NCBI GenBank assembly: GCA_963827755.1
Contig: CAWHCQ010000003.1
Span: 1 to 25,774, forward strand
DNA length: 25,774 nt
Origin: an uncultured Gammaproteobacteria bacterium
GTDB lineage: Bacteria > Pseudomonadota > Gammaproteobacteria > UBA9214
Reading direction: 5' to 3'
Below the pieces are notes generated by a model. The model worked only from the letters and a program-made list of their open reading frames with translations, was not told where the DNA came from and searched no databases. Position 1 is the stretch's first letter. Each line of letters opens with the position of its first letter. Positions 10,311 through 25,774 of the stretch are shown here, one piece after another. Both the position numbers and the translations under genes were made by a program.

Positions 10311-10383
10311 GGAGAACACCTCCTTGCGGTTATTGAATTCATGACTCACCTCGATGCCTTCATGGCCTGTCTTCGTGAGCATT

Positions 10384-10417: not shown

Positions 10418-10485
10418 GGTGCGGAATAAGGCAGGCAGGAATAACCGGGAAGCAGGGGTCAGATCCCGGTTTTCTCCCGGCAATC

Positions 10486-10853: not shown

Positions 10854-12239
10854 TTACGGCCACTGGTTACCGGGGTGGGCCCAGTCGAATTCATCCAGGC
10901 TACCCGGCTCATGCTCCCGCATCATCTCGAAGGCCAGCCACTCCTCGTCGTTGCCGATGTTCTTCAGCGTCTCATCTCTCGAGAAATAGGTCTGCTTCAT
11001 CTTCGGGTCGAAGTTCAAACCGGGTTCCACATCGTTCGGTATGCCATCCTGGTCCGTGTCTAACGTCGCAAGCTGGTCGTCGGGAATCTTCGAGTACCAG
11101 TTGTGCCAGGCGAGCCAGTGAGTGAACTCGTGCAGGACGACGACGGCGAATGTGTCGATGTTCTGGACCGTCCGCCACCCCAGAAACTTCAGCTCGCGAC
11201 TGCGATCGAGCAACGGAAAGCGCAGCTCATACCGCCTCGGCTTCAGCTTCAAAAGATCACAGACAAGCACGGTCTTGTACCCGAACCTGGGGTTATGGAC
11301 GCCGGCCACGCCCTCTCTCGCGCACATATCCACCGCTCCACCACCGTAATCGATCGCTACGGCCTGGCCCTTGGGTCGTGCAGCCGGTGTCTGACGCCAG
11401 TAGTAGAACCAGTTCGGCTTCTGACCGCCCGGGTTGTTGTAGGCGCTGCGCGGGAAAAACAGCTTGACCTTGCGTTTCGCGCTGGCGCGGCACTCCTCGG
11501 TCTCGACCCGGGCCCGAAACTCCTTCTCGCCGAAACCCGACAGCTCGCGGGGCAGACCGGTCAGGGTCACACGCAGACGAGGGCCGCGCCGGTTCTCCGG
11601 CTCCGTAACGATCCGAGTCGGGGCCTCCATTTTCGGCAGAGACCAGGTGATCTCCGGCTCGTACTTCTTCGGAGTGAGCTTGGCACGGAAATCGAGTTCC
11701 AGTTTGCCCGGCTTGTCGTCCGAGAACTCTTCCCGATACCCCTCGGCCGGCCGCGTGATGGTGAGCTCACACGGTGGATTTACCCCGCCGATTCGCCAGG
11801 TCACCTTGCCGGTGGCACCGCCCGGCGACGGGGTTTCGAAGACCCTCTCCGCGCCGTCCTCGAGCGGGAGCGAGATCGCGGACTCGCCTTCGAACAGGTC
11901 CAGCGGCACGGTCTGACCGTAAACGTGGAGCATCAGGGCGCAGTCAGGGACAAAGGTGAGAATCCCGTCCTCCACGCTGCCGCGGATGATGAGATTCCCC
12001 GTGGACTTCGGGGCATTCTTCCCTGCAAACGTCAGGGGACCCGTCGCGTTGACGGCTACGGGCTCCTGCGCAACGACGAACTCGACGTGCCCCTGCGCTT
12101 TCGACCAACCTCCTCTCGGAGCGGTTCCCGAGAGCTCGTACACCAGAGTCCATTGTTCGCTCTTCCGATCCGCTAGTGCCTCGGAGGGGCCACAGATGAC
12201 CGCCATGAACGTGAGAAGCACGATCAGGCGGCATGACAT
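10854..12239 (-). CDS. Exported putative zinc metallopeptidase-like protein, copy 1
   Basis: Signal peptide (ALA-D); beta-rich N-terminal domains; VLHEFTH; DTDQDGIPND Ca-binding-like loop; downstream EEWLA. Start may instead be GTG 12287. Confidence 0.7.
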   Translation of the reverse strand: MSCRLIVLLTFMAVICGPSEALADRKSEQWTLVYELSGTAPRGGWSKAQGHVEFVVAQEPVAVNATGPLTFAGKNAPKSTGNLIIRGSVEDGILTFVPDCALMLHVYGQTVPLDLFEGESAISLPLEDGAERVFETPSPGGATGKVTWRIGGVNPPCELTITRPAEGYREEFSDDKPGKLELDFRAKLTPKKYEPEITWSLPKMEAPTRIVTEPENRRGPRLRVTLTGLPRELSGFGEKEFRARVETEECRASAKRKVKLFFPRSAYNNPGGQKPNWFYYWRQTPAARPKGQAVAIDYGGGAVDMCAREGVAGVHNPRFGYKTVLVCDLLKLKPRRYELRFPLLDRSRELKFLGWRTVQNIDTFAVVVLHEFTHWLAWHNWYSKIPDDQLATLDTDQDGIPNDVEPGLNFDPKMKQTYFSRDETLKNIGNDEEWLAFEMMREHEPGSLDEFDWAHPGNQWP

Positions 12240-12488
12240 CGTCCGTCGTGCAGGCGCATCGCCCGCCTTCAAAAAGGCGCATGCCACCCTGGCCCGCCCC
12301 GGCTGGGCGACGGCACTGGAGCGAGCGACCCTATCCTGCGCCGACTTTCCCGGATGCCTCGGACAACGTCGTTGCATAACACAGCAAACTCCGAAGCGAG
12401 TCGAGGACAGTGGCGCGGGTCTTGATGACGTCATACACATCTTCGATTGTATTGCTGAAATTAATGGGACCGTATAAAATTATAAAAA

Positions 12489-12540
12489 GGTGTCAGAGCA
12501 CAATTAATTCAAATATTAGGAGAAAATGTGCTCTGACACC
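12489..12540. repeat. REP doublet (REPIN-like), subfamily A
   Basis: GGTGTCAGAGCACA ... TGTGCTCTGACACC perfect 14-bp arms, AT-rich spacer. Confidence 0.8.
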
Positions 12541-12594
12541 ATTATAAGTGCACGCATCTCGAGTGAAACCACCCGAAAAATGACGGTCGCATGA

Positions 12595-12664
12595 AGAATT
12601 CAAGGGGTCAGAGTACCTGGACCCCACTATCAGGCATTTCAAGTACTCTGACCCCTTGAATTCT
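12595..12664. repeat. REP doublet, subfamily B (miniature of the RAYT element)
   Basis: AGAATTCAAGGGGTCAGAGTAC ... GTACTCTGACCCCTTGAATTCT 22-bp arms matching the RAYT flanks. Confidence 0.85.
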
Positions 12665-14093
12665 CAGGGCCACTGGTTGCCGGGACGTGCCCAGTCGTAC
12701 TTGTCCAGGCTACCGGGGGCATGCTCGCGCATGATCTCATACGCCAGCCATTCCTCGTCCCCGTTGATGTTCTTCAGCTTTGGGTCATTCGCAAAATAGG
12801 TCTGGAAAATCTTCGGATCGAAATTCAATCCCGGCTCCATGTCATCCGGTATGCCGTCGGCGTCCGCATCAACCTTCGCCAATTGCTCAGGGGAAATCTT
12901 CGAGTACCAGTTGTGGTCGGTGAGAAAATGCTGATACTCGTGCAGCACGGCCACGGCGAACGTATCGATGTTGCGCACCTTTCGCATACCCGAGAATTTC
13001 CGGGCCGCGTTGCGATCGAGCAGCGGAAAGACCAGCTCGAACGCATTCGGTTTCAGCCTCGAGATATCACAGACGAGCAAGGTCTTATATCCGAACCTAC
13101 GATTATAAATGGCGGTTACTCCCGGGGTTTTACAGAGATCCACGGTGCTGCCGCCGTAATCCAGCGCCACGGCCTGGCCCTTGGGTCGTCCAGCCGGCGT
13201 CTGGCGCCAGTAGTAGAACCAGTTTGGGTGCTGCCCCCCCGGATTGTTGTCAGCCTCGCGCGGAAAAAACAGCTTGACCGTGCGCTTCGCGCTCGCTCGG
13301 CACTTCTCGTTCTCGATCCTGGCCCTGAACTCCTTCTCACCGAAACCCGACAGCTCGCGGGGCAAACCCGTTAGGGTCACACGAAGACGAGGACCACGGC
13401 GATTATCCGGCTTAGTAACGATCTGAGTGGGGGCCTCCACTTTCGGCAGGGACCAGGTGATCTCCTCCTCGTACTGCTTCCGATTGAGCGTCGCGCGAAA
13501 ATCGAGAGTCAGCTCGCCCGGCTTGTCGTCGGAGAACGCCGCGCGATGCCCCTTGGCCGGTCGCGTGATGGCGAGCTCACAGGGTGGATCGACCCCGCCG
13601 ATTCGCCAGGTCACCTTGACGACGGGGCCGGTGGGCTCCACCCTTTGGGAGATCTTTTCCGCGCCCTCCTCGAGAGAGATCGAGACCGGGGAGTCGTCCT
13701 GGAACATGTCCAGCGGCACGGTCTGACCTAGAGGTGTATGAACAGCGAGCTGGAAGGGACGAAGGTAAGAACCCCGTCCTCGACGCTGCCCCGGATCGTG
13801 AAGGTCCCCACGGACTTTGCGATGTTCGTCCCTTCGATCGTCAGCGGACCTGTCGCGTTGACCGCCGCGGGGTCCTGGGTGACGACGAACTCAATGTGCC
13901 CTTGCGTATCAGACGCCATTTGCGGATTGGTCACCAACTGCTGAAAAAAGAGAGTCCATCGTCCACTCTCCCGATCTGCCGAGGCCACGGAGGGGCCGAA
14001 GACCACCGCCACGAACGCGAGAATCACGATCAGCCGGCCTGGGTCCGTCCGTCGTGCTGGCGCATCGCCCGCCCTCAAAAAGACGCGTTGCAC
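12664..14093 (-). CDS. Exported putative zinc metallopeptidase-like protein, copy 2; 1-nt deletion at ~13729
   Basis: Colinear with copy 1; HVY-GQTVPL becomes CAC CTC TA- GGT CAG; VLHEYQH, DADADGIPDD, EEWLAY. GTG start at 14093 is inferred. Confidence 0.7.
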
Positions 14094-14191
14094 CTCGGCC
14101 CGCCCCGGCTCGGGCAACGGCGCAGGAACGAGCAGCCGTACCCTGCGCCATCTTTCCCGGATACCTCGGACAACGTCGTTGCAGAACACAG

Positions 14192-14332
14192 CTAACTCCG
14201 CAGCGAGTCGAGGGCCCGGGCGAGGGCCTCGATGATGTCGTCTGCATCTTCGATCCCGACGCCGAAGCGGAATGCGCCGTCCCCCATCAGGTTCCAGTAC
14301 TTCATCTTCGTTTTCTCGCCGGGCTCGATCAT
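14192..14332 (-). pseudogene. 3' fragment of a Cys/Met metabolism PLP-dependent enzyme (MetB/MetC/MdeA family)
   Basis: GDGAFRFGVGIEDADDIIEALARALDSLRS* resembles the family C-terminal R.SVGIED..D.I.DL..AL motif. A more decayed copy lies at ~12385-12447. Confidence 0.7.
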
Positions 14333-14390
14333 GTGTGCATTGGAAGCATAACCCGGCATAACCCACGCATCTCGAGAGAATTAAAGGGGC

Positions 14391-15948
14391 CTAATTGCCG
14401 ACCGCTTCGAACGCACCCATATCCGGGGCGCGGCCGAGAGCGCGCTTACTGCCGTCGCGATCGCGCAGCGGAAAATCAACAGGCAGCGCGATGCCCGCAT
14501 CGATGGCCGGACTGGAGGCGGCCGGTCGGAGATCCCGGTCCAGCCGCGGATCAGCCGTGAGATTGCCGGCGCCGTAGCGCCGGTTGAGCGCGGTCGGCCC
14601 GTTTCGATAACCGGTTGTCGAAGTCGCCGTGGATCAGGATCTCCGAACCATCAGCCGTGTAGAAGAGCGTGTGCCGGATGGACACGGCCGTAGACTCCGG
14701 GTTGATCCATGCTGCCCCCGAGGGATTGGCGATGATGCTGTTTATGATCTCGATGTGCATGGGTTTGCGCTCGTCATAGCCGCAGATCATGCTGTAGTCG
14801 CGGTGACCTTTGAACTTGGGCTCGAATCCGATCGTGCTGTTCAGCAGTCGGAAGCGCCCTTCCTCGACCACGACCGGGTTCTGCCCACCGCGCAGAATCA
14901 GGGTGTTAACGACGTCGCCGCCGTACCACAGCTTCAGCGCATTGTTCTCGATCCCCTGGACGCGGCTGTCCAGCACCGCAACGCGCGTGGCTTTGGTATC
15001 GATGCCGTCGGAGCCGCTGCCGAGTACCGTGACGTTGACCAGCAGGATGTTGTCGCCCGATTCGATGGCGAAAGCGTCCGCACCCCAGCCTTCACCCCTG
15101 GCCTCGATAGTAACGTTCTCCAGGCGCCAGCCGGTGCAAGGCCCGGTGCCACAATGGATGATGGCCTCCGCTTGCACATTGGCCAGCAGAAGCCCGTCGA
15201 CAGAGGCGCTGGCTTCCCACATGGCGATGGCCTCTTCCGAACCAGTGATGGCAAGGTCAGCAATGACGATGTCGCGATTGCGATTGCGCCCGACGTCAAA
15301 AAGGATACCGACCGAGGGGAAGCCGCTGATGTCGATACCGCGGATGACAAGATTCTGTGCATTGACAACGATTCCATATTTGATCCCTGTCGCCGGCCGC
15401 ATGACGACTTTTTCTCCCGGATATGCCATCAACGTCAGGTTACTGGTGGTAACCACCAAGGCCCGGTAGTCATCGCGCTCCCATGCCTCCGCATAGGTCC
15501 CTGCGCGTACGACGATCGTGTCTCCGGCCACGGCCTTGCCAACGGCACGGACGATGCTGCGCAGGGGTGCCTGCTTGGTTCCGGTCGCCGCATCGTTCCC
15601 ATTGGTGGCGACATAGATCACCCGGGTTGTTGGTACCTTCCAGGCTGGAAGCTCCGGAAACCGATCATAGTCGAGCTTGACAAAGGTCATATCTGCAATC
15701 TCGGCATCGCTCCTGAGCACACCGATCCGTTTGTTCGATGAAACACGCAGCCGTGCACCTGCGGAGGATTTCGGGTCCGGTGCCTGCGCCACCAGTGACG
15801 ACCAGTCAGTCTGAGTCAGCGAGGCGTTGCCCGACACTACCGGCTCGGGAGCAGCGCATAGAAACACCAGAGCCAGATAGCTTGCACCATAACCCAGCAG
15901 TCGTCGGACCGGTCGCTGCTGCATGGTATTCATCGATTTCCCTGGCAT
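14391..15948 (-). CDS. Exported right-handed beta-helix (pectin lyase-like, DUF1565-type) protein with choice-of-anchor Q-like tail; frameshift ~14605
   Basis: IYVATNGND...GT...PLRSI..A...A.AGDTIVVRAGTY. The alternative frame continues ADPRL...SSPAIDAG...DRDG..R....PDMGAFE to TAG at 14391. SD AGAGGA. Confidence 0.8.
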
Positions 15949-16150
15949 ATCAGAAGTTCCTCTCTTATAGCGTGACCCTTGTCGCATATAACGCTCTACC
16001 TGCTCCGCCCATTTATCTGTGAATTCAAGGGGTCAGAGTACTTGAACCCCGTCACCAGGTAAAATCCTACAGACATCGGCCAAGCTGTTCAGTATATTTT
16101 CTGCACTAGCAAATAATCTCCTTTCATCATTACGCAAATGGAGTTGCGTT

Positions 16151-16852
16151 ATGGCACGTTTACCGAGGGTGGTCGTTCCTGGCCATCCGCTGCATGTTAT
16201 CCAGCGCGGCAATAACCGGCAGGCAATATTTTTCGCAGACCAGGACTATTGCCGCTTCCACAATGATTTGCGCGAAGCGTCTCAGCGGTTTGATTGTGTT
16301 ATACATGCCTATGTCTACATGACAAACCATGTGCACTTGCTTGTAACTCCGAGCTCCAGGCAGGGTATATCACGCATGATGCAGTCAATCGGGCGTCGGT
16401 ATGTCCGCTACGTTAACAGTATTTATGGTCGCAGCGGCACCCTGTGGGAGGGTCGTTTCAAGTCGGCTGTTATTGATTCAGACCAATACCTGTTTGCCTG
16501 TAGCCGCTACATAGAAATGAACCCGGTACGCGCGCGTATGGTGACTCAGCCGCAGGACTACCGATGGTCAAGTTATCACCATAATGCGATGGGCAAGGCG
16601 GATTCCATGATCAGTCCGCATGTTCTGTATCAGCAGCTTGGTACCAATCCTGCGGAACGACAGGCGGTCTACTCTGGGTTATTCAAGGAAGTCCTTGAAG
16701 AAAAATTCTTGCAGACTCTGCGAAAGGGTACTAATGATTGTGCAATCGTCGGCAGCGAGAAGTTTCAGACAGAGATTGCTGCCATGCTCGCACGTAGAGT
16801 TAAAAAGTATGAGCATGGCGGGGACCGTCGGAGTGAGCGTTATAAAGTTTGA
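16151..16852 (+). CDS. REP-associated tyrosine transposase (HUH Y1, RAYT/TnpA-REP)
   Basis: HVIQRGNNRQ, MTNHVHLL (HUH), LWEGRFKS, RYIEMNPVRA, YRWSSY; SD GGAG. Confidence 0.92.
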   Translation: MARLPRVVVPGHPLHVIQRGNNRQAIFFADQDYCRFHNDLREASQRFDCVIHAYVYMTNHVHLLVTPSSRQGISRMMQSIGRRYVRYVNSIYGRSGTLWEGRFKSAVIDSDQYLFACSRYIEMNPVRARMVTQPQDYRWSSYHHNAMGKADSMISPHVLYQQLGTNPAERQAVYSGLFKEVLEEKFLQTLRKGTNDCAIVGSEKFQTEIAAMLARRVKKYEHGGDRRSERYKV

Positions 16853-16981
16853 GTATGCCGACTTTCAAGTACTCTGACCCCTTGAATGTAGAGTTAAAAA
16901 GTATGAGCATGGCGGGGACCGTCGGAGTGAGCGTTATAAAGTTTGAGAATGCCGACTTTCAAGTACTCTGACCCCTTGAAT
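16794..16981 (+). repeat. 94-bp tandem duplication of the RAYT 3' end plus right arm
   Basis: 16794-16887 equals 16888-16981 except gagtatg vs gagaatg. Confidence 0.92.
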
Positions 16982-17117
16982 GAAACACGTACCTGCCGTG
17001 CTCAAGCAAATCATCCGGGGCCGATGCCGCACCCATGCTGCAGAAGCAGCCCAGCACGCCCAGGAGCGCAGCAAGATAATTGATTCGGGAAGACCGTGCT
17101 GTTCTCAACTCGCTCAT
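16959..17117 (-). pseudogene. 5' fragment of an exported protein, probably a c-type cytochrome, cut at the REP arm
   Basis: SD AAGGA; MSELRTARSSRINYLAALLGVLGCFCSMGAASAPDDLLEHGRYVFH then runs into the arm. (E/R)GRY.F typically precedes a CxxCH. Confidence 0.55.
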
Positions 17118-17185
17118 CGTTATATTTCCTTAACCAGCAAAAATAACACTATGCCCTGGCTTGCAAGAATACCTTGCATTTAAAT

Positions 17186-17211
17186 GGTGTCAGAGCACAT
17201 TTACTGATACC
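17186..17211. repeat. Collapsed REP doublet, subfamily A
   Basis: GGTGTCAGAGCACATTT followed directly by the partial arm ACTGATACC; abuts the stop at 17213. Confidence 0.65.
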
Positions 17212-17212
17212 T

Positions 17213-18259
17213 TTATTTATTCAAATCCTGCTTCTGCTCCCGCAGTCGCTCCCGGTATTTCCTCCTGGCAAACTCCTGCATATCTTCGACGGTATCGCGT
17301 TCATCGAGAATCTCGCGCCCCAGCAGGGTCTCGATGGCATCTTCCAGCGTCACGATGCCCGCAGTCTGGCCGAACTCGTCCTCGACCAGGAACATGTGTG
17401 CGCGTTGTTTTATGAACTGATCGATCAACTGCTGAATCGACAGTTCTTCGGATACCCGGAAAACGGGTTTGGCGAACCGTACGATTGGTTCCGAACCATG
17501 CCCTGCACGCTCCGCTTCAAACAGGTCCGCGCGAATGACCTTGCCCTTGATATCATCGATACCTTCGCCATACACCGGCATCCTTGTAAACTGGCGTGTA
17601 TCGGCCTGATCCAGCGCTTCCGTGACCGTCACGTCTTCATGCAGCATGTGCACGACGCTGCGCGGCGTCAGCACCTCCCCGGTCGGGATCTCGCGCAGCT
17701 TGAGAACATTGGCCAGATATTCATTCTCCTGGGATATCAGGGTGCCGTCCCTGAGCCCCAGCGAGGCCAGGGCGATGATTTCCTCGCGGGTGATTTCTTT
17801 CCCGTCGTGGTGAGTGAACAGCCGGGTCAGGCGCGTGGCAACCCAGACCAGCGGATAGACCAGCTTCACCAGCCAGGCAATGACAAAAGCGGACGGTATC
17901 GCCAGTTGCCGCCAGAAGGTCGCGCCCAGCGTTTTCGGAATGATCTCGGAAAAATACAGGATGGCCAGCGTCAGCAACACCGCGATCAATGTTTCCCATT
18001 TTGCCCCGAACACCTGCAGGGCCTGCGAACCGACCCCGGCGGCACCCATGGTGTGTGCAAAGGTGTTGAGAATCAGGATACTGGAGAGCGATTCATCCAG
18101 GCGTTCCTTGGCTTGACTCAGCACACCCCCGGCACGCGGCCGATCCGACAGGGCCTGCTCGGCAAAGCTCGGTGTCACTGACAACAGCACGGCCTCGAGT
18201 ATCGAGCAGAGAAACGAAACACCGATGGCGATGGTCAGGTAGACAAACAGCAAGGTCAT
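17213..18259 (-). CDS. CNNM (DUF21) + CBS-pair membrane protein (CorB/TlyC-like)
   Basis: SFLCSILEAVLLS, ILILNTFAHTMGAAG, FSEIIPKTLG, FTRMPVY, VEDEFG...GIVTLEDAIE. Confidence 0.9.
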   Translation of the reverse strand: MTLLFVYLTIAIGVSFLCSILEAVLLSVTPSFAEQALSDRPRAGGVLSQAKERLDESLSSILILNTFAHTMGAAGVGSQALQVFGAKWETLIAVLLTLAILYFSEIIPKTLGATFWRQLAIPSAFVIAWLVKLVYPLVWVATRLTRLFTHHDGKEITREEIIALASLGLRDGTLISQENEYLANVLKLREIPTGEVLTPRSVVHMLHEDVTVTEALDQADTRQFTRMPVYGEGIDDIKGKVIRADLFEAERAGHGSEPIVRFAKPVFRVSEELSIQQLIDQFIKQRAHMFLVEDEFGQTAGIVTLEDAIETLLGREILDERDTVEDMQEFARRKYRERLREQKQDLNK

Positions 18260-18349
18260 GATGGATTCCCGTAAATGGCCAGGGTTTCATTCTCGACCAT
18301 TCATGGCATGGATGTCCATGGCAGCCGGTGAGGCGGCGAACAATATTGC

Positions 18350-18397
18350 TGTCAGAGCACATTTTCTACTTATATTAGCGTTAAATGTGCTCTGACA
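18350..18397. repeat. REP doublet, subfamily A
   Basis: TGTCAGAGCACATTT ... AAATGTGCTCTGACA. Confidence 0.8.
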
Positions 18398-18407
18398 CCC
18401 TTAATGC

Positions 18408-19247
18408 TTACCCCTCTGGCTTATCAACTACTCGTACCGGAAAAGGTTCGCTGACACTGCCAGTGTATAGCGTGCGATGAGGGAAAGGTATTTCGATTCC
18501 GGTTTTGTCAAACGCGTTTTTGATTTCTTCCTGCAGACTGTTGCGCATATCCAGGAATTTTTCCCGCTTCCCCCAGACAGAAAATTGTATATTCAAGGAA
18601 GACTCGCCAAACCCCAGAAAAATAAACAAGGGAACAGGCTCGTCAAGACAGAGCGGGTTTTCATCCGCCACCCGGGCCAACACCTCGCGTGCACGTGCAA
18701 TGTCTTCCTTGTATGCGATGCCTATTTGCAAGTCGAACCGGCGTATCGGGAAACGCGTGAGTGTTTTGCTCTCGCTCTTTATCAGGGTTTCATTGGGGAT
18801 TCGAACAAATATATTATCAAATGTCCGGATTTTGACCGATAACAGGTCGATCGAGAGAACCTCGCCGGTTGTGGAGCCTATCGTTATAACATCACCCACC
18901 TTAAAAGGCCGTTCGGCCATCAGAAACAGGCCGCTGACAAAATTGGAAGCCGATGTCTGGGAGGCAAAACCCAATGCTACCGATACAATACCGGCAGCGC
19001 CAAGCAGCACGTTCAGTTTAAATCCAAGTTCGCGCAGAGCAGAAACAAAAAAGATTGTTAATACCAGGTAAAATACAATTCTTTTAATCAAGCCTGTTTG
19101 ACCTGCGGGCAGATGCTTGCTAAACAGGCGTTTGGACAGGCGTGCGGCAAGCAGCGCAAGCCCATAGCCCACAAACAAAAGCAGCGCGGCCTTGATCATG
19201 GCCATCACGGGGATGGCGGTGGCAAGCGTTTCGGCGGTATTTTCCAT
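18408..19247 (-). CDS. mscS: Small-conductance mechanosensitive channel (MscS family)
   Basis: LLGAAGIVSVALGFASQ...SNFVSG, ERPFKVGDVI, IPNE, GIEIPFPHR. Confidence 0.9.
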   Translation of the reverse strand: MENTAETLATAIPVMAMIKAALLLFVGYGLALLAARLSKRLFSKHLPAGQTGLIKRIVFYLVLTIFFVSALRELGFKLNVLLGAAGIVSVALGFASQTSASNFVSGLFLMAERPFKVGDVITIGSTTGEVLSIDLLSVKIRTFDNIFVRIPNETLIKSESKTLTRFPIRRFDLQIGIAYKEDIARAREVLARVADENPLCLDEPVPLFIFLGFGESSLNIQFSVWGKREKFLDMRNSLQEEIKNAFDKTGIEIPFPHRTLYTGSVSEPFPVRVVDKPEG

Positions 19248-19261
19248 AAGCTCGTCGAGTC

Positions 19262-20062
19262 TTAGCTGAATATAGATTGAAAGGCGCGAAGCAAAATACC
19301 CTTGTCCGCGGTATCGCGTGGCGCAGTGATACGGCTGCCATGTTTTGCCTGATCGGGCGGGTTATCTTCAATATCAACCCGTGCAAATTCGGCGTCATCT
19401 TCGCGTGTCAGTGAAATATCCTGTGTACACAGTCTTTCTTGCGAGTCCGCATAGAGTGCCAGCAGGCCGACGGGTAAACTGATGCGATCCAGTACCAGCG
19501 TCTCCTGAGCGAGATTACGAATATGTATTTGCGTTACTGCACGATGGGGCTTGTAGGAAATGCTGTTGGCATCCAGTGTACCTCTTGAGCGAGCGGAATA
19601 GCATAATTCGCCTTCCATGGTATTGGAGCCAAACCAGGTATCCGACGGTCTGACGATAGCCAGCTCACGTAACGGCGCGGCTTGTTCGTCTACGCAAAAT
19701 TGCATCCAGACCGGTGTGCTGACAAACAATGAAACACTGATGCCGCCGGGAATGTGCAAGGGACTGTCCGGCCTGACGACGACGGGGCGTGGCGCCAATG
19801 CGGGACGGACAAGCAAAGTGTCGCGCGTCTTGCTGACAAGGTAGCGTTCAGGGTTAAGAAATTCATCGGGAATTTTATCGCCACCGTTAATTGCGAAACT
19901 GTTTTTTTCTATATCGCTATGGCTTGTCTCGCGAAAGCCAATGCGCCATTCCTTCGGCAGGCGATGCACCCAAAGTTCCAGGTTTGCGATGCGCCAGCAT
20001 CGAGCCGCATCTGTCTGAAAATCGAAGCTTCCCCACCATTTTGTGCCCTTGTTGTCGGTCAT
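19262..20062 (-). CDS. Conserved hypothetical protein, possibly DUF432-like
   Basis: Beta-rich; RPVVVRP, PSDTWFG...GELCY; 14 bp upstream of mscS. Family call is from recall and unverified. Confidence 0.6.
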   Translation of the reverse strand: MTDNKGTKWWGSFDFQTDAARCWRIANLELWVHRLPKEWRIGFRETSHSDIEKNSFAINGGDKIPDEFLNPERYLVSKTRDTLLVRPALAPRPVVVRPDSPLHIPGGISVSLFVSTPVWMQFCVDEQAAPLRELAIVRPSDTWFGSNTMEGELCYSARSRGTLDANSISYKPHRAVTQIHIRNLAQETLVLDRISLPVGLLALYADSQERLCTQDISLTREDDAEFARVDIEDNPPDQAKHGSRITAPRDTADKGILLRAFQSIFS

Positions 20063-20129
20063 ACGGATGACGCCTGTGTTTAATTTACGTAAAGCCCTGG
20101 TCTTCCAAAGACGAACATGGATAAATGGA

Positions 20130-20199
20130 AATCAATAGGGTCAGACTCCTTTGATCCGTCAACTATTAGTCAAATCAATCGAGTCTGACCCTATTGATT
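20130..20199. repeat. REP doublet, subfamily C
   Basis: AATCAATAGGGTCAGACTC ... GAGTCTGACCCTATTGATT 19-bp perfect arms. Confidence 0.82.
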
Positions 20200-20200
20200 C

Positions 20201-20257
20201 AGCTAACGACCAAGCCAAGCGGCGGCGAAGCCGTCCGACTTGGGCGCCTTGTTAGAG
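20201..20257 (+). other. Integron attC site 1
   Basis: R'' AGCTAAC, imperfect palindrome CCAAG-CGG-CGGC-GAA-GCCG-T-CCG-A-CTTGG, R' GTTAGAG. Confidence 0.75.
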
Positions 20258-20521
20258 GGCGCCACGGTAAACATCCTTCCTGTGACCCACCTTCACTACA
20301 ACGACGACAAGTTCATTGTCTTCGATGCTGTATACAATACGATAAGAACCCTGGCGTATCCGGTATTTATCGTGACCGGATAGCTTCTTTGAACCTGGGG
20401 GGCGTGGATCATTAGCCAATTGGCCAATGCGACGGATTATGCGTTGCCGTTCTTTCTTTTGCGGTATGGCTTCAATTTCCTTCACCGCAGAACGCTTGAT
20501 CGATACCTTATATTTTTCCAC
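20252..20521 (-). CDS. relE: RelE/ParE-family type II toxin
   Basis: YKVSIKRSAVKEI...LANDPRPPGSKKLSG..KYRIRQGSYRIVYSI...VVKVGHRKDVY. Start could be 20521 (GTG). Confidence 0.88.
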   Translation of the reverse strand: MEKYKVSIKRSAVKEIEAIPQKKERQRIIRRIGQLANDPRPPGSKKLSGHDKYRIRQGSYRIVYSIEDNELVVVVVKVGHRKDVYRGAL

Positions 20522-20741
20522 GTCGTTTCAGATCTTTAACGACGTCTTCATACGGCAAGCTGGGCTCGTTCACCCTGTCTTCGAAAGCAGCAAGGTCCTC
20601 GGCATCCTCAACAAGGCTTAATTGCACAGCCTCATTGACCAGGTCCGATATGGATCGCTCAGTCTCTGCTGCTTTGACCCGAAGTGCGCGGTGAAGCGCT
20701 GGATCAAAATATACGGTTGCTCGTTTGGGATCACTGCTCAT
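20508..20741 (-). CDS. Ribbon-helix-helix (CopG-like) antitoxin
   Basis: KRATVYFDPALHRALRVKAA...SISDLVNEAV; acidic C-terminus; overlaps the toxin start. Confidence 0.85.
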   Translation of the reverse strand: MSSDPKRATVYFDPALHRALRVKAAETERSISDLVNEAVQLSLVEDAEDLAAFEDRVNEPSLPYEDVVKDLKRRGKI

Positions 20742-20748
20742 GGGGTTA

Positions 20749-20777
20749 TATATAGCACTTTATCGCTATAACGTCAA
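20749..20777 (-). promoter_or_regulatory. Sigma70 promoter with operator palindrome for the TA operon
   Basis: TTGACG-17 nt-TATATA; palindrome TATAGC-N8-GCTATA (20751-20770). Confidence 0.65.
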
Positions 20778-20795
20778 AACGTTATTTATTCAGCC

Positions 20796-20886
20796 CTCTA
20801 ACGATTGATTCGAGCAGCGCGGCCACCGAACTTAGCCACGAAGCGCCACATCTCTTTCCCGCCTCGGCTCGGACGACTTGTTATGC
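20796..20886 (+). other. Integron attC site 2
   Basis: R'' CTCTAAC, TCGAGC...GCTCGGA pairing, R' GTTATGC. GCCCTCTAAC (20793-20802) is the exact complement of GTTAGAGGGC (20251-20260). Confidence 0.72.
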
Positions 20887-20900
20887 CGCAACGGTCAATG

Positions 20901-20954
20901 GGGTCAGACTCGATTGATTCGGCAAAAGTTTGGCATATCAATCGAGTCTGACCC
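20901..20954. repeat. REP doublet, subfamily C
   Basis: GGGTCAGACTCGATTGAT ... ATCAATCGAGTCTGACCC 18-bp perfect arms. Confidence 0.82.
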
Positions 20955-20967
20955 TATCGATCTCTAG

Positions 20968-21105
20968 TGGCGTGACGGCTACGCCGAGGGGGAAGGCAGG
21001 ACGATGATCGACGGCAGGATCTACGAGGGCACCTGGTCTCAAGGCTGCCTGCGTGGCCAAGAGGTGCCGGTGGGCTGGGGATCGCCGCCCAGGCAATGCC
21101 GCTGA
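20968..21105 (+). pseudogene. 3' fragment of a MORN-repeat protein
   Basis: WRDGYAEGEGRTMIDGRIYEGTWSQGC matches the MORN pattern YEG.W..G...G.G; in-frame TAG at 20965. Confidence 0.65.
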
Positions 21106-21145
21106 TTTAAAGGGTATCAGGCTTGATTCGTACTACGTAAAATGA

Positions 21146-21194
21146 TGTCCGGGCACATTTCCTGCTGATCTTGGAATTCAATCGTGCCCTGACA
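21146..21194. repeat. Degenerate REP doublet, subfamily A
   Basis: TGTCCGGGCAC ... GTGCCCTGACA (1 mismatch). Confidence 0.5.
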
Positions 21195-21257
21195 ACCCTG
21201 TCTTCAATACAAGCTGTAATCGTGCCCCGGCACCATTGCACTTACAGGAAACGCGAC

Positions 21258-22310
21258 ATGGACTATTCAACACTCGGACACAGCGGCCTGAAGGTTTCAC
21301 GGGTCTGCCTGGGCAGCATGACCTGGGGCTTGCAAAACAACCAGCAGGATGCCAACCAGCAGATCGACTACGCCCTCGAGCGCGGTGTGAACTTCATCGA
21401 TACCGCCGAGATGTACGCCATCCCCCCGTCGGCCGATACCTACGGCAGCACCGAAACCATCATCGGTAACTGGCTGGCGGACCATCCCGGCAAACGCGAG
21501 TCCCTGGTGCTGGCCACGAAAATCGCCGGCGAGGGTTTGCCGTGGGTGCGCGATGGCGGGCCGATCACGGGTGACGCCGTGGTCACGGCCGTGGATCAAT
21601 CCCTGGCGCGTTTGCAAACCGACTACATCGACGTATACCAGCTGCACTGGCCCAACCACGCCTTCGCGCACTTCGGCCGCCATTGGCCGAACGATGTTTG
21701 TTTCAGTAAAACCGACGCCGGCCAGGCCGTGGACGGCATGCACGATATATTAAAAGGCCTGGCGCGTTGCGTGGATGCCGGAAAAATTCGCTTCTGCGGT
21801 TTATCCGACGACTCGCCCTGGGGCATCCACAAATATCTCGAACTGGCCAGGGCGCACGACCTGCCGCGCATCACCTCGATCCAGAACGAATTCAACCTGC
21901 TGCATCACATCGACTACCCGCATACCCTCGAAACCTGCGCGATGGAGCAAGTGGCCTATCTACCGTGGTCACCGATCGGTGGCGGCGTACTGAGCGGAAA
22001 GTACCTGGACGGCCAGCGCCCCGAGGGCAGCCGCTGGACCATCTCGCAGCGCATGGGACTGATCCGGGAGGGAGAGCAAGTCGACGTCGCGGTGGCGGCC
22101 TACCAGGCGGTTGCCAAACAACACGGCATCAGCGTCGCGCAACTGGCACTGAAATGGTGTGACCAGGTGGACGGGGTGACCTCGACCATCATCGGCGCCA
22201 CGACGCTCGAGCAGCTTCGCGAAGACCTGGATGCTTTTGAAATTGATTACAGCGAGGGGCTGGCGGATGCGGTGAGTAAGGTGTTGAAGCGGCATGCGTT
22301 GGCTTTTTAG
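21258..22310 (+). CDS. Aldo/keto reductase (Tas-like)
   Basis: SD AGGA before ATG 21258; CLGSMTWG, NFIDTAEMY, LATK, DVYQLHWP, SIQN, WSPIGGGVLSGKY, IIGATT. Confidence 0.9.
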   Translation: MDYSTLGHSGLKVSRVCLGSMTWGLQNNQQDANQQIDYALERGVNFIDTAEMYAIPPSADTYGSTETIIGNWLADHPGKRESLVLATKIAGEGLPWVRDGGPITGDAVVTAVDQSLARLQTDYIDVYQLHWPNHAFAHFGRHWPNDVCFSKTDAGQAVDGMHDILKGLARCVDAGKIRFCGLSDDSPWGIHKYLELARAHDLPRITSIQNEFNLLHHIDYPHTLETCAMEQVAYLPWSPIGGGVLSGKYLDGQRPEGSRWTISQRMGLIREGEQVDVAVAAYQAVAKQHGISVAQLALKWCDQVDGVTSTIIGATTLEQLREDLDAFEIDYSEGLADAVSKVLKRHALAF

Positions 22311-22318
22311 ATTAAAGG

Positions 22319-22368
22319 GTGTCAGAGGACATTTATTGCTTATATTAGAGTTAAATGTGCTCTGACAC
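22319..22368. repeat. REP doublet, subfamily A
   Basis: GTGTCAGAGGACATTTA ... TAAATGTGCTCTGACAC, between convergent genes. Confidence 0.8.
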
Positions 22369-22402
22369 GAATGGCACTTTTACCTGGCCTCAATTACATC
22401 AA

Positions 22403-22993
22403 TCAATCCTGACCACCGGTCATTTTGATCAAGGTACGGTCTTTATTGATAAAGTGATGGTAAAGCGCTGCTGCAGCATGGCCGGCAATCAAAATCCACA
22501 CCAGCCAGGCGCCCATAATTTCTTTATGGAAAAAATCGACGGGCTCTTCAAATTCCTCGAACGTCAGGCCGAGTGTCCCCCAAACAAACACATCGAACAG
22601 CCAGGTTTCTTCAAATTTGGGGATCTGGAATAAATAAAAATACTCCGTGGCGATACCGGTGCCGATATACCCTGTCAGCGGCATCACAATCATGATGACA
22701 TAGAGTACATAATGGGCACTGTGCGCCAGAAAATGCTGCCAGCGCGGCGCGGCTTCAAACGCAGGCTGTACATTCATGTTGCGCCAGATAATGCGCAGAA
22801 TAACGACGACACCGATACTGATTCCCGCCGATAAATGCAACTGCAAAGCAATCATATTTTCCGGAGTTTCTTTCTCGGTAAACCAGTGCCGGTAATACAC
22901 CGCGCAATAGGCCAGTAAAAACAACAAGGCCGTACCCCAGTGCAGCCACCTGGCGATGCGCCCGTAATTCTGTGCAGTGTTGAAATTATTCAT
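22403..22993 (-). CDS. Cytochrome b561 (CybB/YceJ family)
   Basis: RWLHW, LQLHLSAG...LRIIWR, MPLTG, FFH, GHAAAALYHHF..KDRTL..M. Confidence 0.88.
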   Translation of the reverse strand: MNNFNTAQNYGRIARWLHWGTALLFLLAYCAVYYRHWFTEKETPENMIALQLHLSAGISIGVVVILRIIWRNMNVQPAFEAAPRWQHFLAHSAHYVLYVIMIVMPLTGYIGTGIATEYFYLFQIPKFEETWLFDVFVWGTLGLTFEEFEEPVDFFHKEIMGAWLVWILIAGHAAAALYHHFINKDRTLIKMTGGQD

Positions 22994-23075
22994 AGTGCAT
23001 AATCAGGCCGATATCTGCCGCAACCCAAGAGCGATCTTAAGTATAAAATAAAGATATCCAGGCTTCAGTTAATAA

Positions 23076-23104
23076 TTATATTAGAGTTAAATGTGCTCTG
23101 ACAC
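23076..23104. repeat. Half REP doublet, subfamily A
   Basis: TTATATTAGAGTTAAATGTGCTCTGACAC is identical to 22340-22368 and differs by one base from 18370-18398. Confidence 0.75.
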
Positions 23105-23163
23105 TATTTACTCCCACTGAAGTTGTTATCGATAATAATGTTCAAATAACCTTAGTCGATATT

Positions 23164-24057
23164 CTAGCTGCGTAAATGTTTTTCAAAAAAAGCCAGCGTC
23201 CTTGACCAGGCTAATTCAGCCGCTTCAGGGTTATAACGACTGGTGGAGTCATTGTGAAATCCATGTTGCACCCCTGGGTACACGAAGGCCTGATAATCAA
23301 CCTTATTGGCTTTAAGCACCGCTTCGTAATCAGGCCAACTGGCATTAACACGCGTATCGTTCTCGGCAAATTGCAACATTAATGGCCCTTTAACTTTTTT
23401 AACCAACTCACCTTTTGCCGGCGTGCCATAAAACGGTACGGCGGCATCAATCACGCCCGTTGCAGTAGCGGCGAGCATATTACTGATATAACCCCCGAAA
23501 CAGAAACCCACTACCCCTAACCTGTTGTTACCTGATGGGTGTTGCTTAAGGAAACTGGCCGCGGCTATAAAGTCCTGCTCAATTTTTTCTCTGTCCATAC
23601 TTCTTTGCATTGCTCGCCCTTCATCATCATTGCCGGGATAACCACCCAGTGGAAACAGCGCGTCGGGGGCAAAGGCAATAAATCCTGCTTTAGCCAGTCG
23701 CCGGGCGACATCTTTAATATAGGGATTCAATCCGCGATTTTCGTGCACCACCAGCACCATAGGCGCTTTGCCAACAATGCCGTTGGGCACAACCAAATAA
23801 CCTCGACCTTTACCATGTCCTTGCGGTGAATCAAACTCCTGATAACTGGCCTTTATCTCAGCATCATTAAACGACACCTGTTCAGCCAATGCATAGTTCG
23901 GGGTTAAGGCAGTGCTGACCGCGCCGAACGTCAAACCAGCGACTGAAAGGGAGGCCAGGCGCGCGAGGAAAGTCCGCCGGTCGATATCGCCATGGGCATA
24001 TTCGTCATACCAGTCAAAAGCTTGTTGCGGGATGTTTGTGATTGGTTTTGCAGACAT
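23164..24057 (-). CDS. Dienelactone hydrolase family protein (YghX-like)
   Basis: YDEYAHG.IDRRTFL (twin-arginine-like), HENRGLNP, GFCFGG nucleophile motif, HGFHND. Confidence 0.9.
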   Translation of the reverse strand: MSAKPITNIPQQAFDWYDEYAHGDIDRRTFLARLASLSVAGLTFGAVSTALTPNYALAEQVSFNDAEIKASYQEFDSPQGHGKGRGYLVVPNGIVGKAPMVLVVHENRGLNPYIKDVARRLAKAGFIAFAPDALFPLGGYPGNDDEGRAMQRSMDREKIEQDFIAAASFLKQHPSGNNRLGVVGFCFGGYISNMLAATATGVIDAAVPFYGTPAKGELVKKVKGPLMLQFAENDTRVNASWPDYEAVLKANKVDYQAFVYPGVQHGFHNDSTSRYNPEAAELAWSRTLAFFEKHLRS

Positions 24058-24132
24058 TGATGAACTCCGTATTTGGTCATTCAGGTCTTGGGTTCAAATC
24101 ATAGCTAATTTCAAAGAGATGTGAGATAAAAA

Positions 24133-24184
24133 GGTGTCAGAACACATTTGTTACTTAGTCCAGGGTTAAATGTGCCCTGACACC
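24133..24184. repeat. REP doublet, subfamily A
   Basis: GGTGTCAGAACACATTT ... AAATGTGCCCTGACACC. Confidence 0.78.
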
Positions 24185-24232
24185 ATTTACTACCTGCCAG
24201 TATCGTATCCAGAGCACATTCAGGTCATATGC

Positions 24233-24246
24233 TTGATCCACATCAA
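24233..24246. promoter_or_regulatory. FNR/ANR/DNR box
   Basis: Perfect TTGAT-CCAC-ATCAA, about 80 bp upstream of ATG 24328. Confidence 0.7.
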
Positions 24247-24327
24247 CGCGCCCGGAGCTGAAACAAGTTAGCTTCTAAATTGCCAGTAAGTACGTGGCTG
24301 TCAGTAAACCAGACGGAGTTCAACATC

Positions 24328-24609
24328 ATGGCTTGCTATAACCCCGGGTGCCTGGGGAAATACGATTTTGACCAGATCGCGTTTTTCGCCCGCAAGCGTT
24401 TTATCGAGGGTTGCCAGACCGTTACCTTGCTCGAGCAGGCGCGGTCGCAGCGCGAAAAGGAAGAGATTGCACTGGTCTGCATGCTGGATATAGCGGATGA
24501 CCAGATCCGTGACCTGCAACTCAGCTGCCAGCACAGCGAGCACTGCAAAGTGACCACCTGCAGGAGCCAGCTGAAAACAATGATCGCCGCGGAACTGGCG
24601 GTTCAATAA
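24328..24609 (+). CDS. Small Cys-rich hypothetical protein (93 aa)
   Basis: SD GGAG; seven Cys; upstream FNR box and downstream hairpin with U-tract. Confidence 0.7.
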   Translation: MACYNPGCLGKYDFDQIAFFARKRFIEGCQTVTLLEQARSQREKEEIALVCMLDIADDQIRDLQLSCQHSEHCKVTTCRSQLKTMIAAELAVQ

Positions 24610-24614
24610 CAATC

Positions 24615-24700
24615 AGGGACAGACCACGTTTTCTCATTGTGAAAACTGGCTATCAACAGGGTCAGACTGATCTGACCCCTGTTTCTTTTCTGTTTCTTTT
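24615..24700. repeat. REP-related arms; last hairpin probably acts as terminator
   Basis: AGGGACAGACCACGTTTTC...GAAAAC partial pair, then AACAGGGTCAGA-CTGA-TCTGACCCCTGTT (24655-24683) and a T-rich tail. Confidence 0.6.
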
Positions 24701-24711
24701 AAAAACCCGCG

Positions 24712-25746
24712 CTACTCAAACGACTTCGCTTCCATCTCCAGATAGATGCGATAAGCATTTCCACGGTTACTGGCCTTGAAAGCCGGCAGGTCGGAATAAG
24801 CAGACCAGTCGGTCGCGCTATAGGCCTCATCAAACGGCGTGAAATTCGCCACGGCTGTGCGCATTGCGTCGCGCACATAGGCAATATAACCTTCCGTCAG
24901 GGCAACGGCTGCCGACAGGTCGTCCGAGGGTGTGCCGTGCCCGGGGATCACGTAACGCGGTGTCGGTTCAAGTGCTCCCAGTGCAGCCAGCCCATTGAGC
25001 CAGTGTTCTATGTTGGTCTCCGGACTGTCGAGAAACGGGACGCGCCCCTTGTAGATGACATCGCCGCTGAACAACACACCGTAGTCCTTCACCAGCATCA
25101 CCGTGTCGCCGGGCGCATGTGCCGGCCCCAGGTATTTCAGTGTGAAGGTGACGCCGCCGACCGTAAAAGTTTTTTCCGACTCAAAGGTTTCATCGGGTAA
25201 CACAATATAGGTGTGCTCATCCACCCACGGGAACAACGCTTCACGTCGCTGCACCAGGCGCCGCTGGGCGTCTTCTCCCTGGCTTGCTGCCGTACCACCC
25301 GCATAGCCAAGCGCCTGGCGCTGCGCCCACACCGGCGGGTTCCCTGCGTACTCCTTAAAGCCCTGCAGGCCATAGATGTGATCAGCGTGATAGTGACTGA
25401 CGACAATGCGCTCAATGGGCTGATCGGTCACCTCGCGGATACGCTCCAGCAACCGATAGCCGAGCGCCGGTGTGCCGAGTGCATCGAACACCACCACCCC
25501 ACCGTCCGTGACCACAAAGCCGGCGTTGGAGGTGTGCCCCTCGTTGTCCGCGCCCGGCACACCGGAAAGCCCGATAACATAGTAGACCGGCACGCCCGGG
25601 ACCTGGTGCAGGGTAAACGGAAGTGTGACCTTGCCGTATGGATCGGACACGGGTTTGTTGCAGGCGGCCACGGTTAATGTCAGCAGTCCGCACAAACAGG
25701 CCGTGAAATTGAAGGAGTCAGTAACCTTTTTTAGCATTCTGTGCAT
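24712..25746 (-). CDS. Exported MBL-fold metallo-hydrolase (SoxH-like), possible lipoprotein
   Basis: SHYHADH, AHAPGD, LFSGD, IPGHG; NAGFVVT..GVVVFD; lipobox-like VAAC. Confidence 0.85.
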   Translation of the reverse strand: MHRMLKKVTDSFNFTACLCGLLTLTVAACNKPVSDPYGKVTLPFTLHQVPGVPVYYVIGLSGVPGADNEGHTSNAGFVVTDGGVVVFDALGTPALGYRLLERIREVTDQPIERIVVSHYHADHIYGLQGFKEYAGNPPVWAQRQALGYAGGTAASQGEDAQRRLVQRREALFPWVDEHTYIVLPDETFESEKTFTVGGVTFTLKYLGPAHAPGDTVMLVKDYGVLFSGDVIYKGRVPFLDSPETNIEHWLNGLAALGALEPTPRYVIPGHGTPSDDLSAAVALTEGYIAYVRDAMRTAVANFTPFDEAYSATDWSAYSDLPAFKASNRGNAYRIYLEMEAKSFE

Positions 25747-25774
25747 GTTTTTCCTGTGGCGGATGAAAAAGGGT

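Follow-up and report, generated by a model that had tools for sequence, protein, structure and literature searches.

What holds together a run of unrelated genes that stand one or two at a time between copies of the same short inverted repeat? The question is raised by contig CAWHCQ010000003.1 of an uncultured gammaproteobacterium (assembly GCA_963827755.1), the whole of which, 25,774 nucleotides, is referred to here as the window. Its right half contains a gene for a Y1-HUH transposase of the RAYT/TIRYT type and 20 repeat arms (three type patterns, at most 3 mismatches), all of them at positions 12489 to 24184. A first-pass annotation, made from the sequence alone, had described this half as an array of modules around a RAYT gene, separated by doublets of repetitive extragenic palindromes (REP), and had proposed the arms as junctions for module accretion, with ordinary insertion into spacers as the alternative. 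The anatomy of the arms, their regional confinement, the mosaic composition of the array, its reshuffling, and the excess of joints at arms are directly seen. The explanation ranked first, recombination between locally spread repeats, is weighed below against its rivals.

Anatomy of the Repeat Arms

All three stem types share the core GG(G/T)GTCAGA(G/C). The type A arm reads ..AAA(T/A)GGTGTCAGAGCACATTT, the type B arm AATTCAAGGGGTCAGAGTACTTGAA, and the type C arm ATCAATAGGGTCAGACTCGATTGAT. As read from the sequences, the bases flanking the core can pair in every type (AAATG/CATTT, TTCAAG/CTTGAA, and ATCAAT/ATTGAT), and a fourth stem type, found in relatives, obeys the same pairing rule (AAAC/GTTT). 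The octamer GKGTCAGA occurs 21 times in the window compared to an expected 1.19, a count reached by none of 100 shuffles. Nineteen of these occurrences lie within 12490 to 24678, and the remaining two (9896 and 10456) are intragenic. Reversed control patterns have no match genome-wide with up to 3 mismatches.

The arms are arranged in eight doublets, five of type A (12489, 18348, 22318, 24133, and the decayed 21144), one of type B (12601), and two of type C (20131 and 20894), and as single arms at 16022, 16864, 16958, 17186, and 23089. The inverted doublets (52 to 70 bp) form long, strong hairpins with z-scores of -6.1 to -9.3, compared to the weak folds of lone arms (z about -1.1 to -1.5). 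Together with a truncated arm (24210-24220) and a core-only palindrome (24659-24679), the arm-bearing features are as follows, with the strand given where one applies.

12489..12540: type A doublet (arms 12489-12505 and 12524-12540) in the spacer between tandem paralogues
12595..12664: type B doublet with 25-nt arms that are 96% complementary (-23.4 kcal/mol, z -9.15)
16022..16046, plus strand: type B arm, left inverted repeat of the transposase unit; homology to G011:C348 begins here
16864..16887, minus strand: type B arm, right inverted repeat of the transposase unit
17186..17202, plus strand: single type A arm that borders the CNNM block on its left
18348..18399: type A doublet; three contexts part right after its right core
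20131..20198: type C doublet, 2 bp from the attC-like site of the cassette
20894..20961: type C doublet; the upstream attC-like site lies 7 bp away
21144..21197: decayed type A doublet upstream of the aldo/keto reductase gene
22318..22369: type A doublet, followed by an 11-nt remnant (22370-22380) of the end of a putative repeat-targeting miniature inverted-repeat transposable element (MITE)
23089..23105, minus strand: single type A arm, preceded by loop-like sequence but by no left arm
24133..24184: type A doublet
24210..24220, plus strand: truncated type A arm (CAGAGCACATT, without GGTGT) that borders the ORF109 block on its left
24659..24679: core-only palindrome; 99.8% identity to contig C9 begins at its center

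Ten of the 12 spacers between 12.4 and 24.7 kb are occupied by arms when counted by hand, as are 9 of the 11 spacers of at least 20 bp when counted by script. The description of the first-pass annotation, with about 12 inverted repeats in three subfamilies that separate nearly every module and with no copy left of 12.4 kb, is thus a fair one. Genome-wide, 73 of 89 arms are intergenic, and the spacers of the zone are longer (median, 187 bp) than the 131 bp found for comparison. Convergent gene ends are not favored among the arm-occupied spacers, which gives no indication of a terminator role.

A further element of ∼150 bp with 18-nt inverted ends sits in or beside an arm core at about 11 of 19 ends, where part of the arm is apparently duplicated. 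It is found in a related genome at G012:C111 3570-3719 (L011), at L019, L126-L128, L133, L135, and L139, and at C8:15620 of the present genome (G000); the remnant at 22370-22380 of the window belongs to it. The element looks like a MITE that targets the arm repeats.

Regional Confinement of the Arms

Gene calling for this analysis gave 2826 genes and 1896 spacers in the genome. At the threshold of 3 mismatches, the genome contains 89 arms (69 of type A and 7 of type B), 67 of which fall into three stretches: the window with 20, C9 at 57-112 kb with 40, and C8 at 15.6-18.2 kb with 7. Arms are found in 42 of the 1896 spacers and on 9 contigs. In a scan statistic, the densest run has 9 of 12 consecutive spacers occupied, which none of 2000 permutations reaches. 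Control families of the GTAG type in the same genome show densest runs of 3, 4, 3, and 2, of which only the second is unusual (12/2000), and they occupy 13 to 23 contigs. One further GTAG-type motif (G2) has no matches in the genome. The arm family is therefore regionally confined, unlike the GTAG-type REP families of the same genome, and the equal density between genes that the first-pass annotation had set against its own proposal is not found. A Fisher test on zones drawn around the arms (31/65 compared to 11/1831 spacers) was circular and was replaced by the scan statistic.

Relatives assembled into 9 to 20 contigs show similar clustering, in four of them near their own transposase genes, although these genomes are kin and hence not independent. 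Of the 39 type C arms of G002, 19 are no more than 9 kb away from its type C transposase gene; G050 has 20 of 39 in C3:100-137 kb, and G008 has 13 of 31 in C1:394-424 kb. The type C arms of G017 are more spread, and G048 has none. Type A arms gather in the same neighborhoods in G002 (16/26, C5:196-240 kb) and G008 (7/12). The transposase neighborhoods contain 25 to 30 core matches per 40 to 60 kb, compared to ∼4 per 60 kb by simple arithmetic.

One such array in G002 (C5:232.5-239.7 kb) contains seven type C doublets at a spacing of 0.6 to 1.9 kb directly downstream of the type C transposase gene. Its genes are small and unrelated (glycine-transporter-like, PhnA/YjdM, DksA/TraR-like, methyltransferase, SOUL, and HNH-repeat), and its DNA has 41 to 46% GC compared to otherwise near 60% in that genome region.

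At least four other dispersed repeat families, two of GTAG-tagged and two of GC-rich palindromes, lie outside the window on 13 to 23 contigs of the present genome; the GTAG-tagged families are separate from the arms and absent from the window. A 7-base unit, GAAGTGA, is repeated about 99 times in the same genome.

The Transposase and Its Family

The arms surround one transposase gene.

16151..16852, plus strand: intact Y1-HUH transposase (RAYT/TIRYT type) of 233 aa with H60-V-H62 and Y120...N124-P125

The residues H60, H62, Y120, N124, and P125 are retained in at least 95% of 47 aligned homologues. The protein matches the Pfam family Y1_Tnp (1.2e-14), its sole Pfam match even at an E value of ≤10, with no match to a Y2 HUH family. 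The NCBIfam model REP_Tyr_transpos (REP-associated tyrosine transposase) gives 74.7 bits against a cut-off of 80. A phmmer search against solved structures returned none at an E value of 0.01, which leaves TnpA-REP of Escherichia coli unmatched. About 90 C-terminal residues with conserved positions extend beyond the transposase core.

The gene is bounded by inverted type B arms of 24 to 25 nt, and 77% homology to G011:C348 spans the unit from arm to arm. The core flanks the gene in 8 of 10 transposase loci from this genome and nine relatives, each gene having its own stem type. Several copies or fragments are grouped together in G008 and in G017. The nearest named relatives of the enzyme come from gammaproteobacterial bins, e.g., Thiohalobacterales, Thiohalomonadaceae, and Sedimenticola.

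Statements cited here and below refer to parts of the papers concerned. Di Nocera et al. described TIRtrons as having inverted repeats with the motif GGGGWSAS and named their enzymes TIRYT (PMC3733652). The arms at 16022-16046 and 16864-16887 both contain GGGGTCAG, which fits this motif (GGGG[AT][CG]A[CG]); the type C and D loci of the relatives also fit, and type A, with GGTGTCAG, is one letter off. Quentin et al. equate TIRtrons with their subclass 2.1, place 291 of the 292 group 1 RAYTs of Bertels et al. there, and report a C-terminal helix-turn-helix (HTH) domain for the subclass (Bac_DnaA_C, HTH_23, or HTH_28-like) (PMC6006769). Among true RAYTs, those of group 1 have moderately frequent flanking 16-mers and the behavior most like that of insertion sequences (PMC5581495). 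The C-terminal 98 residues of the present enzyme match no Pfam family at an E value of ≤10, and no subclass-2.1 HTH is detected in them. Since the arm core GGGGTCAG fits GGGGWSAS, the element appears to be of a known kind, TIRtron/TIRYT, an assignment made by published descriptions. "RAYT/REP" is accordingly a loose name: the Y1-HUH enzyme behind the original label stands, and TIRYT/TIRtron describes it better (PMC3733652).

Modules of the Array and Genes Cut at Arms

The modules between the arms consist of mutually unrelated genes.

17213..18259, minus strand: CNNM/CBS membrane protein, with 96% copies in C9 and G012:C111
18408..20062, minus strand: MscS channel (18408-19247) and a 266-aa protein without a family (19262-20062)
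21171..22310, plus strand: aldo/keto reductase (AKR)
22403..22993, minus strand: cytochrome b561
23164..24057, minus strand: dienelactone hydrolase
24280..24609, plus strand: ORF109, 109 aa, without a family; directly adjoins CNNM in C9, G012, and two metagenomes
24712..25746, minus strand: metallo-beta-lactamase-fold hydrolase

The GC content at third codon positions ranges from 46 to 76% per gene, and neighbors differ by up to 28 points, e.g., 46 to 48 for the toxin-antitoxin (TA) genes described below compared to 76 for AKR. The zone of C9 is similarly varied, with peptidases, MgtE, an Na/H exchanger, a subtilase, a methyltransferase, a RIO kinase, a symporter, and an epimerase. In the zones of relatives, a match exists for just 21 of the 108 zone proteins.

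Two genes are cut off beside arms, and one duplication ends at an arm.

16983..17117, minus strand: cytochrome c gene reduced to a 5' fragment of 45 codons that stops 1 bp short of the outer end of a B arm; full length in G012:C338
20968..21105, plus strand: 3' fragment of a MORN-like gene, 45 codons and stop, starting 7 bp past a C doublet; full length in C9:91836-92903
16794-16887 and 16888-16981, plus strand: units of a 94-bp tandem duplication (3' end of the transposase gene and B arm), joined directly after the arm

The joint of the 94-bp duplication at the outer end of the B arm shows no microhomology. At the left border of the array, an A and a B doublet together fill the spacer between tandem paralogues that are 77% alike. 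The differences in AT content between modules, the truncated genes, and the duplication ends at junctions, all pointed out in the first-pass annotation, are thus borne out, as is an orphan integron cassette.

The Integron Cassette

20201..20886, minus strand: integron-type cassette with an attC-like site (20201-20257), a ParE/RelE toxin gene (20252-20521), a ribbon-helix-helix (RHH) antitoxin gene (20508-20741), and a second attC-like site (20796-20886)

The ParE-RHH module has copies of 94 to 95% identity in G048 (two copies) and G045 and of 74 to 88% in others. The homology stops at RYYYAAC/GTTRRRY-like boxes, beyond which a different imperfect palindrome is found in each genome. Of the two attC-like sites, the longer folds over its whole length, and the shorter fails to do so in the minimum-energy structure. 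Judging from the sequence, these flanking palindromes look like attC sites, and the module is a true integron cassette. Copies of the cassette lie near integron integrases that pass the TIGR02249 cut-off, at a distance of 3.7 kb in G048 and 3 kb in G002. The best TIGR02249 match of the present genome (92% complete) reaches 105.9 bits compared to the cut-off of 265, in a 70-aa frame at C40:95643-96103, and is an integrase remnant. The whole unit is enclosed by the two type C doublets, 2 and 7 bp from the boxes.

Integrase matches above the cut-off occur in G048, G002, and G045, with two TGA stops in the second copy of G048. In G014:C282 at ∼3640-3700 (L015), a core-only palindrome of the arm family replaces the attC site of a TA cassette right after the stop-codon box. 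No attC boxes were noticed at the other modules of the window, and the genome-wide attC finder used was unreliable: this home-made program returned 118 scattered candidates, missed both sites beside the TA genes, and was not used further.

Reshuffling of Modules and Joints at Arms

Blocks common to the contig of the window (C3), to C9, and to G012:C111 stand in differing orders. CNNM recurs in C9 at 96%, ORF109 at 93% directly beside CNNM, and AKR at 89%. The contig G012:C111 is a mosaic with ORF109, CNNM, and a further block as in C9 (96 to 99.5%), followed by AKR and cytochrome b561 as in the window (95%). The last 1104 bp of the window (24671-25774) equal C9:114424-115527 at 99.8%; this identity begins in the center of the core palindrome and runs to the end of the contig. 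The repeat may represent a duplicated gene or a second strain in the bin, and C3 and C9 may be two loci or two strains.

The arms are where these contexts part. At the CNNM doublet, the left arm and the loop are common to three contexts, which part immediately past TCTGAC(A/C)C. The arm at the head of the ORF109 block is reduced to CAGAGCACATT in the window, while the full arm is present in C9 and G012. Upstream of AKR, each context has a different doublet. The joint between ORF109 and CNNM lacks an arm in C9; G012:C111 and two metagenomes from different studies have one there, with nearly the same 10 to 11 letters between. On the two sides of one doublet, C9 and G012:C111 differ at 42 of 1757 positions to the left and at 3 of 999 to the right.

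A comparison of 18 G012 contigs with the zones, from which matches below 80% were dropped, gave 44 internal block ends, some of which are alignment gaps. An arm lies within 30 bp of 18 of these ends in the present genome, of 22 in G012, and of 28 in either. As 21% of the intergenic positions of the zones are that close to an arm, the 18 ends represent an enrichment (binomial P = 0.003), in agreement with the suggestion that breakpoints fall on arm ends. Identities to G012 of roughly 81 to 99.5% for zone modules, compared to 72 to 92% for the backbone, bear out only weakly that the modules are much the closer of the two.

Metagenome runs that contain parts of the stretch are labeled sediment or marine-sediment metagenomes, and contigs of four runs from four studies add further joints. 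Among the 15 joints listed, of 23, 4 are short skips within genes and 11 connect modules. At least one end lies within 5 bp of an arm in 10 of these 11, and both ends do in 5. Five of the listed joints, like many loose ends, run from repeat to repeat; they reflect only repeat copies elsewhere and are not counted as module joints. Five adjacencies have 48 to 166 unique bases on the shorter side.

ORF109-CNNM (two runs)
CNNM-doublet-AKR
TA cassette-B arm/transposase
CNNM-cytochrome b561
CNNM doublet joined, inverted, to the hydrolase end

The metagenome with CNNM-doublet-AKR does so without the 2.9-kb block that the window flanks by two complete doublets. The arms are thus clearly preferred joints of rearrangement.

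Explanations for the Array

Ranked first, and given a somewhat better than even chance, is that recombination between locally spread repeats reshuffles the modules. The right half of the window would then be an accessory zone of lower GC content and rapid rearrangement, centered on a Y1-HUH transposase of the RAYT/TIRYT kind. The enzyme's own arms and MITE-like doublets of related arms would have been spread by it, mainly locally, and the arms would have come to lie between one- and two-gene modules of differing origin. The doublets, as hairpin-forming repeats of ∼50 to 70 bp, would serve as preferred break-and-join points, and recombination between copies would delete, duplicate, invert, or swap the intervening modules, either within one genome or with incoming DNA from relatives. 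Most joints would derive from recombination between arms (RecA-type or template switching) rather than from capture catalyzed by the transposase.

Several points weigh against this explanation. Sixteen of the 44 block ends lie near no arm in either genome, and the module C9:85759-87359 stands in the G012 backbone with no arm on either side. Joints that spare genes must be intergenic, arms fill much of that space, and the enrichment is only about two-fold. The joint of the 94-bp duplication, without microhomology, suits simple repeat recombination poorly. The module order derives from a metagenome bin with 5.4% contamination, and contigs of the four metagenome runs do not bridge the window's own order.

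Next in rank, though unlikely, is a coincidence, in which doublets insert ordinarily into spacers, the region owes its variability to other causes, e.g., exchange via the homology of flanking genes, and arms and joints meet only since both must be intergenic. The intergenic position of 73 of the 89 arms, the longer spacers of the zone, the 16 armless block ends, and the one module moved without arms would all agree with this. However, the two genes cut off beside arms break 1 and 7 bp away from the arm, and at one block edge the arm itself is truncated. Block ends also lie near arms twice as often as random intergenic positions do. The GTAG-type repeats are unclumped, so a tolerance of the zone for insertions does not explain the confinement alone. 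Ordinary insertion into spacers, the alternative named in the first-pass annotation, hence cannot be the whole story.

Placed below this, and improbable, is capture by the transposase itself. The enzyme would cut single-stranded arms at the foot of the hairpin and rejoin them to other arms, and arm-bounded segments would be excised, perhaps as circles, and inserted at other arms in the manner of attC or pdif sites. Related enzymes cut and rejoin REP DNA beside the hairpin in vitro (PMC8266576). The joints at outer arm ends fit such a reaction, comprising the duplication, the genes cut 1 and 7 bp away, and the attC-like sites 2 and 7 bp away. The arm-transposase-arm unit is conserved from arm to arm in another genome (77%), and the metagenomic CNNM-doublet-AKR lacks its 2.9-kb block as a single crossover at a doublet would leave it. 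Against capture, no cleavage site could be mapped, and other joints lie in the loop, inside the arm, or in the center of the palindrome, as for crossovers anywhere within a repeat. REPtrons reportedly do not appear to move as units (PMC6006769).

Recombination between repeats accounts for the data equally well as catalyzed capture. A crossover between two doublets also leaves apparent breaks at their outer ends, so the data do not separate the two mechanisms. Type A is abundant, with 69 arms, and a full-length cognate gene for it is absent from this 92%-complete genome; only the rare type B (7 arms) has such a gene. For this reason, recombination between repeats is placed first and capture lower. 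Of the original proposal of arms as accretion junctions, the preference of joints for arms stands; the 16 armless ends speak against its general form, and the enzymatic part of it shares the low standing of capture.

More doubtful again is the idea of a true gene-cassette platform, the HUH counterpart of an integron, made up of a TIRYT-type HUH transposase together with its hairpin arms, where arm-bounded single-gene modules, including integron cassettes, would be moved between arms as single-stranded DNA and exchanged among related lineages. If true, this would give a large, function-less group of transposases a role.

Least probable of all is an artefact, in which metagenome assembly or binning went wrong at repeats and so produced the module order seen in the window and in the short G012 contigs. 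In its favor, the window coincides with one entire contig of a bin that has 52 contigs and 5.4% contamination, and its right end matches C9 at 99.8% and goes no further. G012 is split into 390 contigs, and window-specific joints are unbridged in four runs. Against it, the ORF109-CNNM joint is found again in C9, in G012:C111, and, from different studies, in two metagenomes. The arms share just 17 to 25 exact bases and the doublet loops differ, which is short for mis-joins, and clustering near the transposase gene is also seen in the relatives of 9 to 20 contigs.

Relation to Known Systems

The closest likeness is to the TIRtrons, with a RAYT-like Y1-HUH gene between inverted repeats that carry GGGGWSAS (GGGGTCAG in the window), repeats elsewhere as single copies, dimers, and clusters in moderate numbers (here 89 arms and many doublets), and several distinct paralogues per genus, each with its own repeats. 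Unlike in the window, the parts of the published accounts covered contain no arrays of single genes over tens of kilobases, no reshuffling, and no boxed integron cassette. The type A arms with GGTGTCAG are a further difference, and the C terminus, in which Pfam detects no subclass-2.1 HTH, may be another.

REPtrons and their REP doublets (REPINs) resemble it in that a Y1-HUH gene is flanked by its own palindromes, doublets form long hairpins, and one repeat class belongs to one gene (PMC3116915, PMC8266576, and PMC6006769). In contrast to these, the arms lack a GT[AG]G foot, and lone arms form weak hairpins. Bertels and Rainey found the REPINs of Pseudomonas fluorescens distributed roughly randomly over extragenic space, with small clusters beside the RAYT gene, and distinct RAYTs that "almost never cluster" (PMC3116915). 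Unlike the dispersed REPINs, at least two thirds of the arm family lie within a few tens of kilobases.

Integron arrays also consist of unrelated one- or two-gene modules between imperfect inverted repeats that fold as single strands, and the window includes one real cassette. Unlike integrons, the arms have no RYYYAAC/GTTRRRY boxes, gene orientation is mixed, several genes are large, the only trace of an integrase is a remnant on another contig, and the enzyme on the side of the arms is an HUH transposase instead of a tyrosine recombinase. IS91/ISCR elements and pdif modules are alike in having a DNA-cutting enzyme that moves its neighbors or short sites that delimit portable modules. However, IS91/ISCR enzymes are Y2 HUH proteins, whereas the transposase here matches Y1_Tnp only, and pdif sites are Xer sites, whereas the window has no Xer-like gene and tyrosine-recombinase-like matches lie on other contigs.

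Repeat-mediated rearrangement is already a known phenomenon. In enterobacterial REP and repeat rearrangements and in Neisseria mosaics, short dispersed palindromes act as crossover points for duplication, deletion, and exchange. These repeats are spread genome-wide, unlike in the present case, where repeats and reshuffling are concentrated in one zone around a transposase gene.

A transposase-centered, genus-recurring array of reshuffled single-gene modules that extends over tens of kilobases and encloses an integron cassette was not found in the parts of the open-access literature covered. In the parts cited, the literature describes RAYT/TIRYT repeats as dispersed and their genes as mostly immobile. 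The genus studied here has its repeats gathered round the gene, where they alternate with single genes of no relation to each other, and natural reshuffling of the intervening blocks is demonstrable. If the enzyme makes the joints, gene capture would have a new route; should ordinary recombination make them, the array would still be a clear example of a hotspot of genome flexibility that is structured by a repeat family. The arm sequences and joints named here are concrete enough to be used in a cleavage or strand-transfer assay.

Source Bin and Surrounding Sequence

The window is the entire contig C3 of the metagenome bin G000, which comprises 52 contigs and 2.85 Mb and is 91.8% complete with 5.4% contamination; with this origin, mis-joins at repeats could affect the window. 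The comparison genome G012 comprises 390 contigs, of which the short ones may be mis-binned. The stretch from 18.8 to 19.8 kb (MscS and the 266-aa gene) is almost uncovered in the four metagenome runs and is thus uninformative about absence. An Rfam search of the window returned no family. Neither the window nor C9 contains tRNA genes, and no tRNA-linked island border was found there.

The GC content is 60 to 70% in the left 12.4 kb and ∼43 to 63% in the right half. With only two stretches of 72 to 78% matches to G012, the high-GC half (1-12400) also looks accessory. It contains a histidine kinase gene (2462-3862), a gene for a glycine-zipper protein (783-1445), and several long open reading frames without a Pfam family.

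The tandem paralogues at the border of the two halves (10854-12440 and 12664-14366, minus strand) have 77% DNA identity. They encode secreted-looking proteins with an HExxH motif (HEFTH and HEYQH) and without a Pfam or NCBIfam family. A one-base frameshift near 13720-13728 breaks the second of them and may reflect either polymorphism or error; one metagenome contig, at a depth of 3.5, has an extra G and no frameshift at this position.

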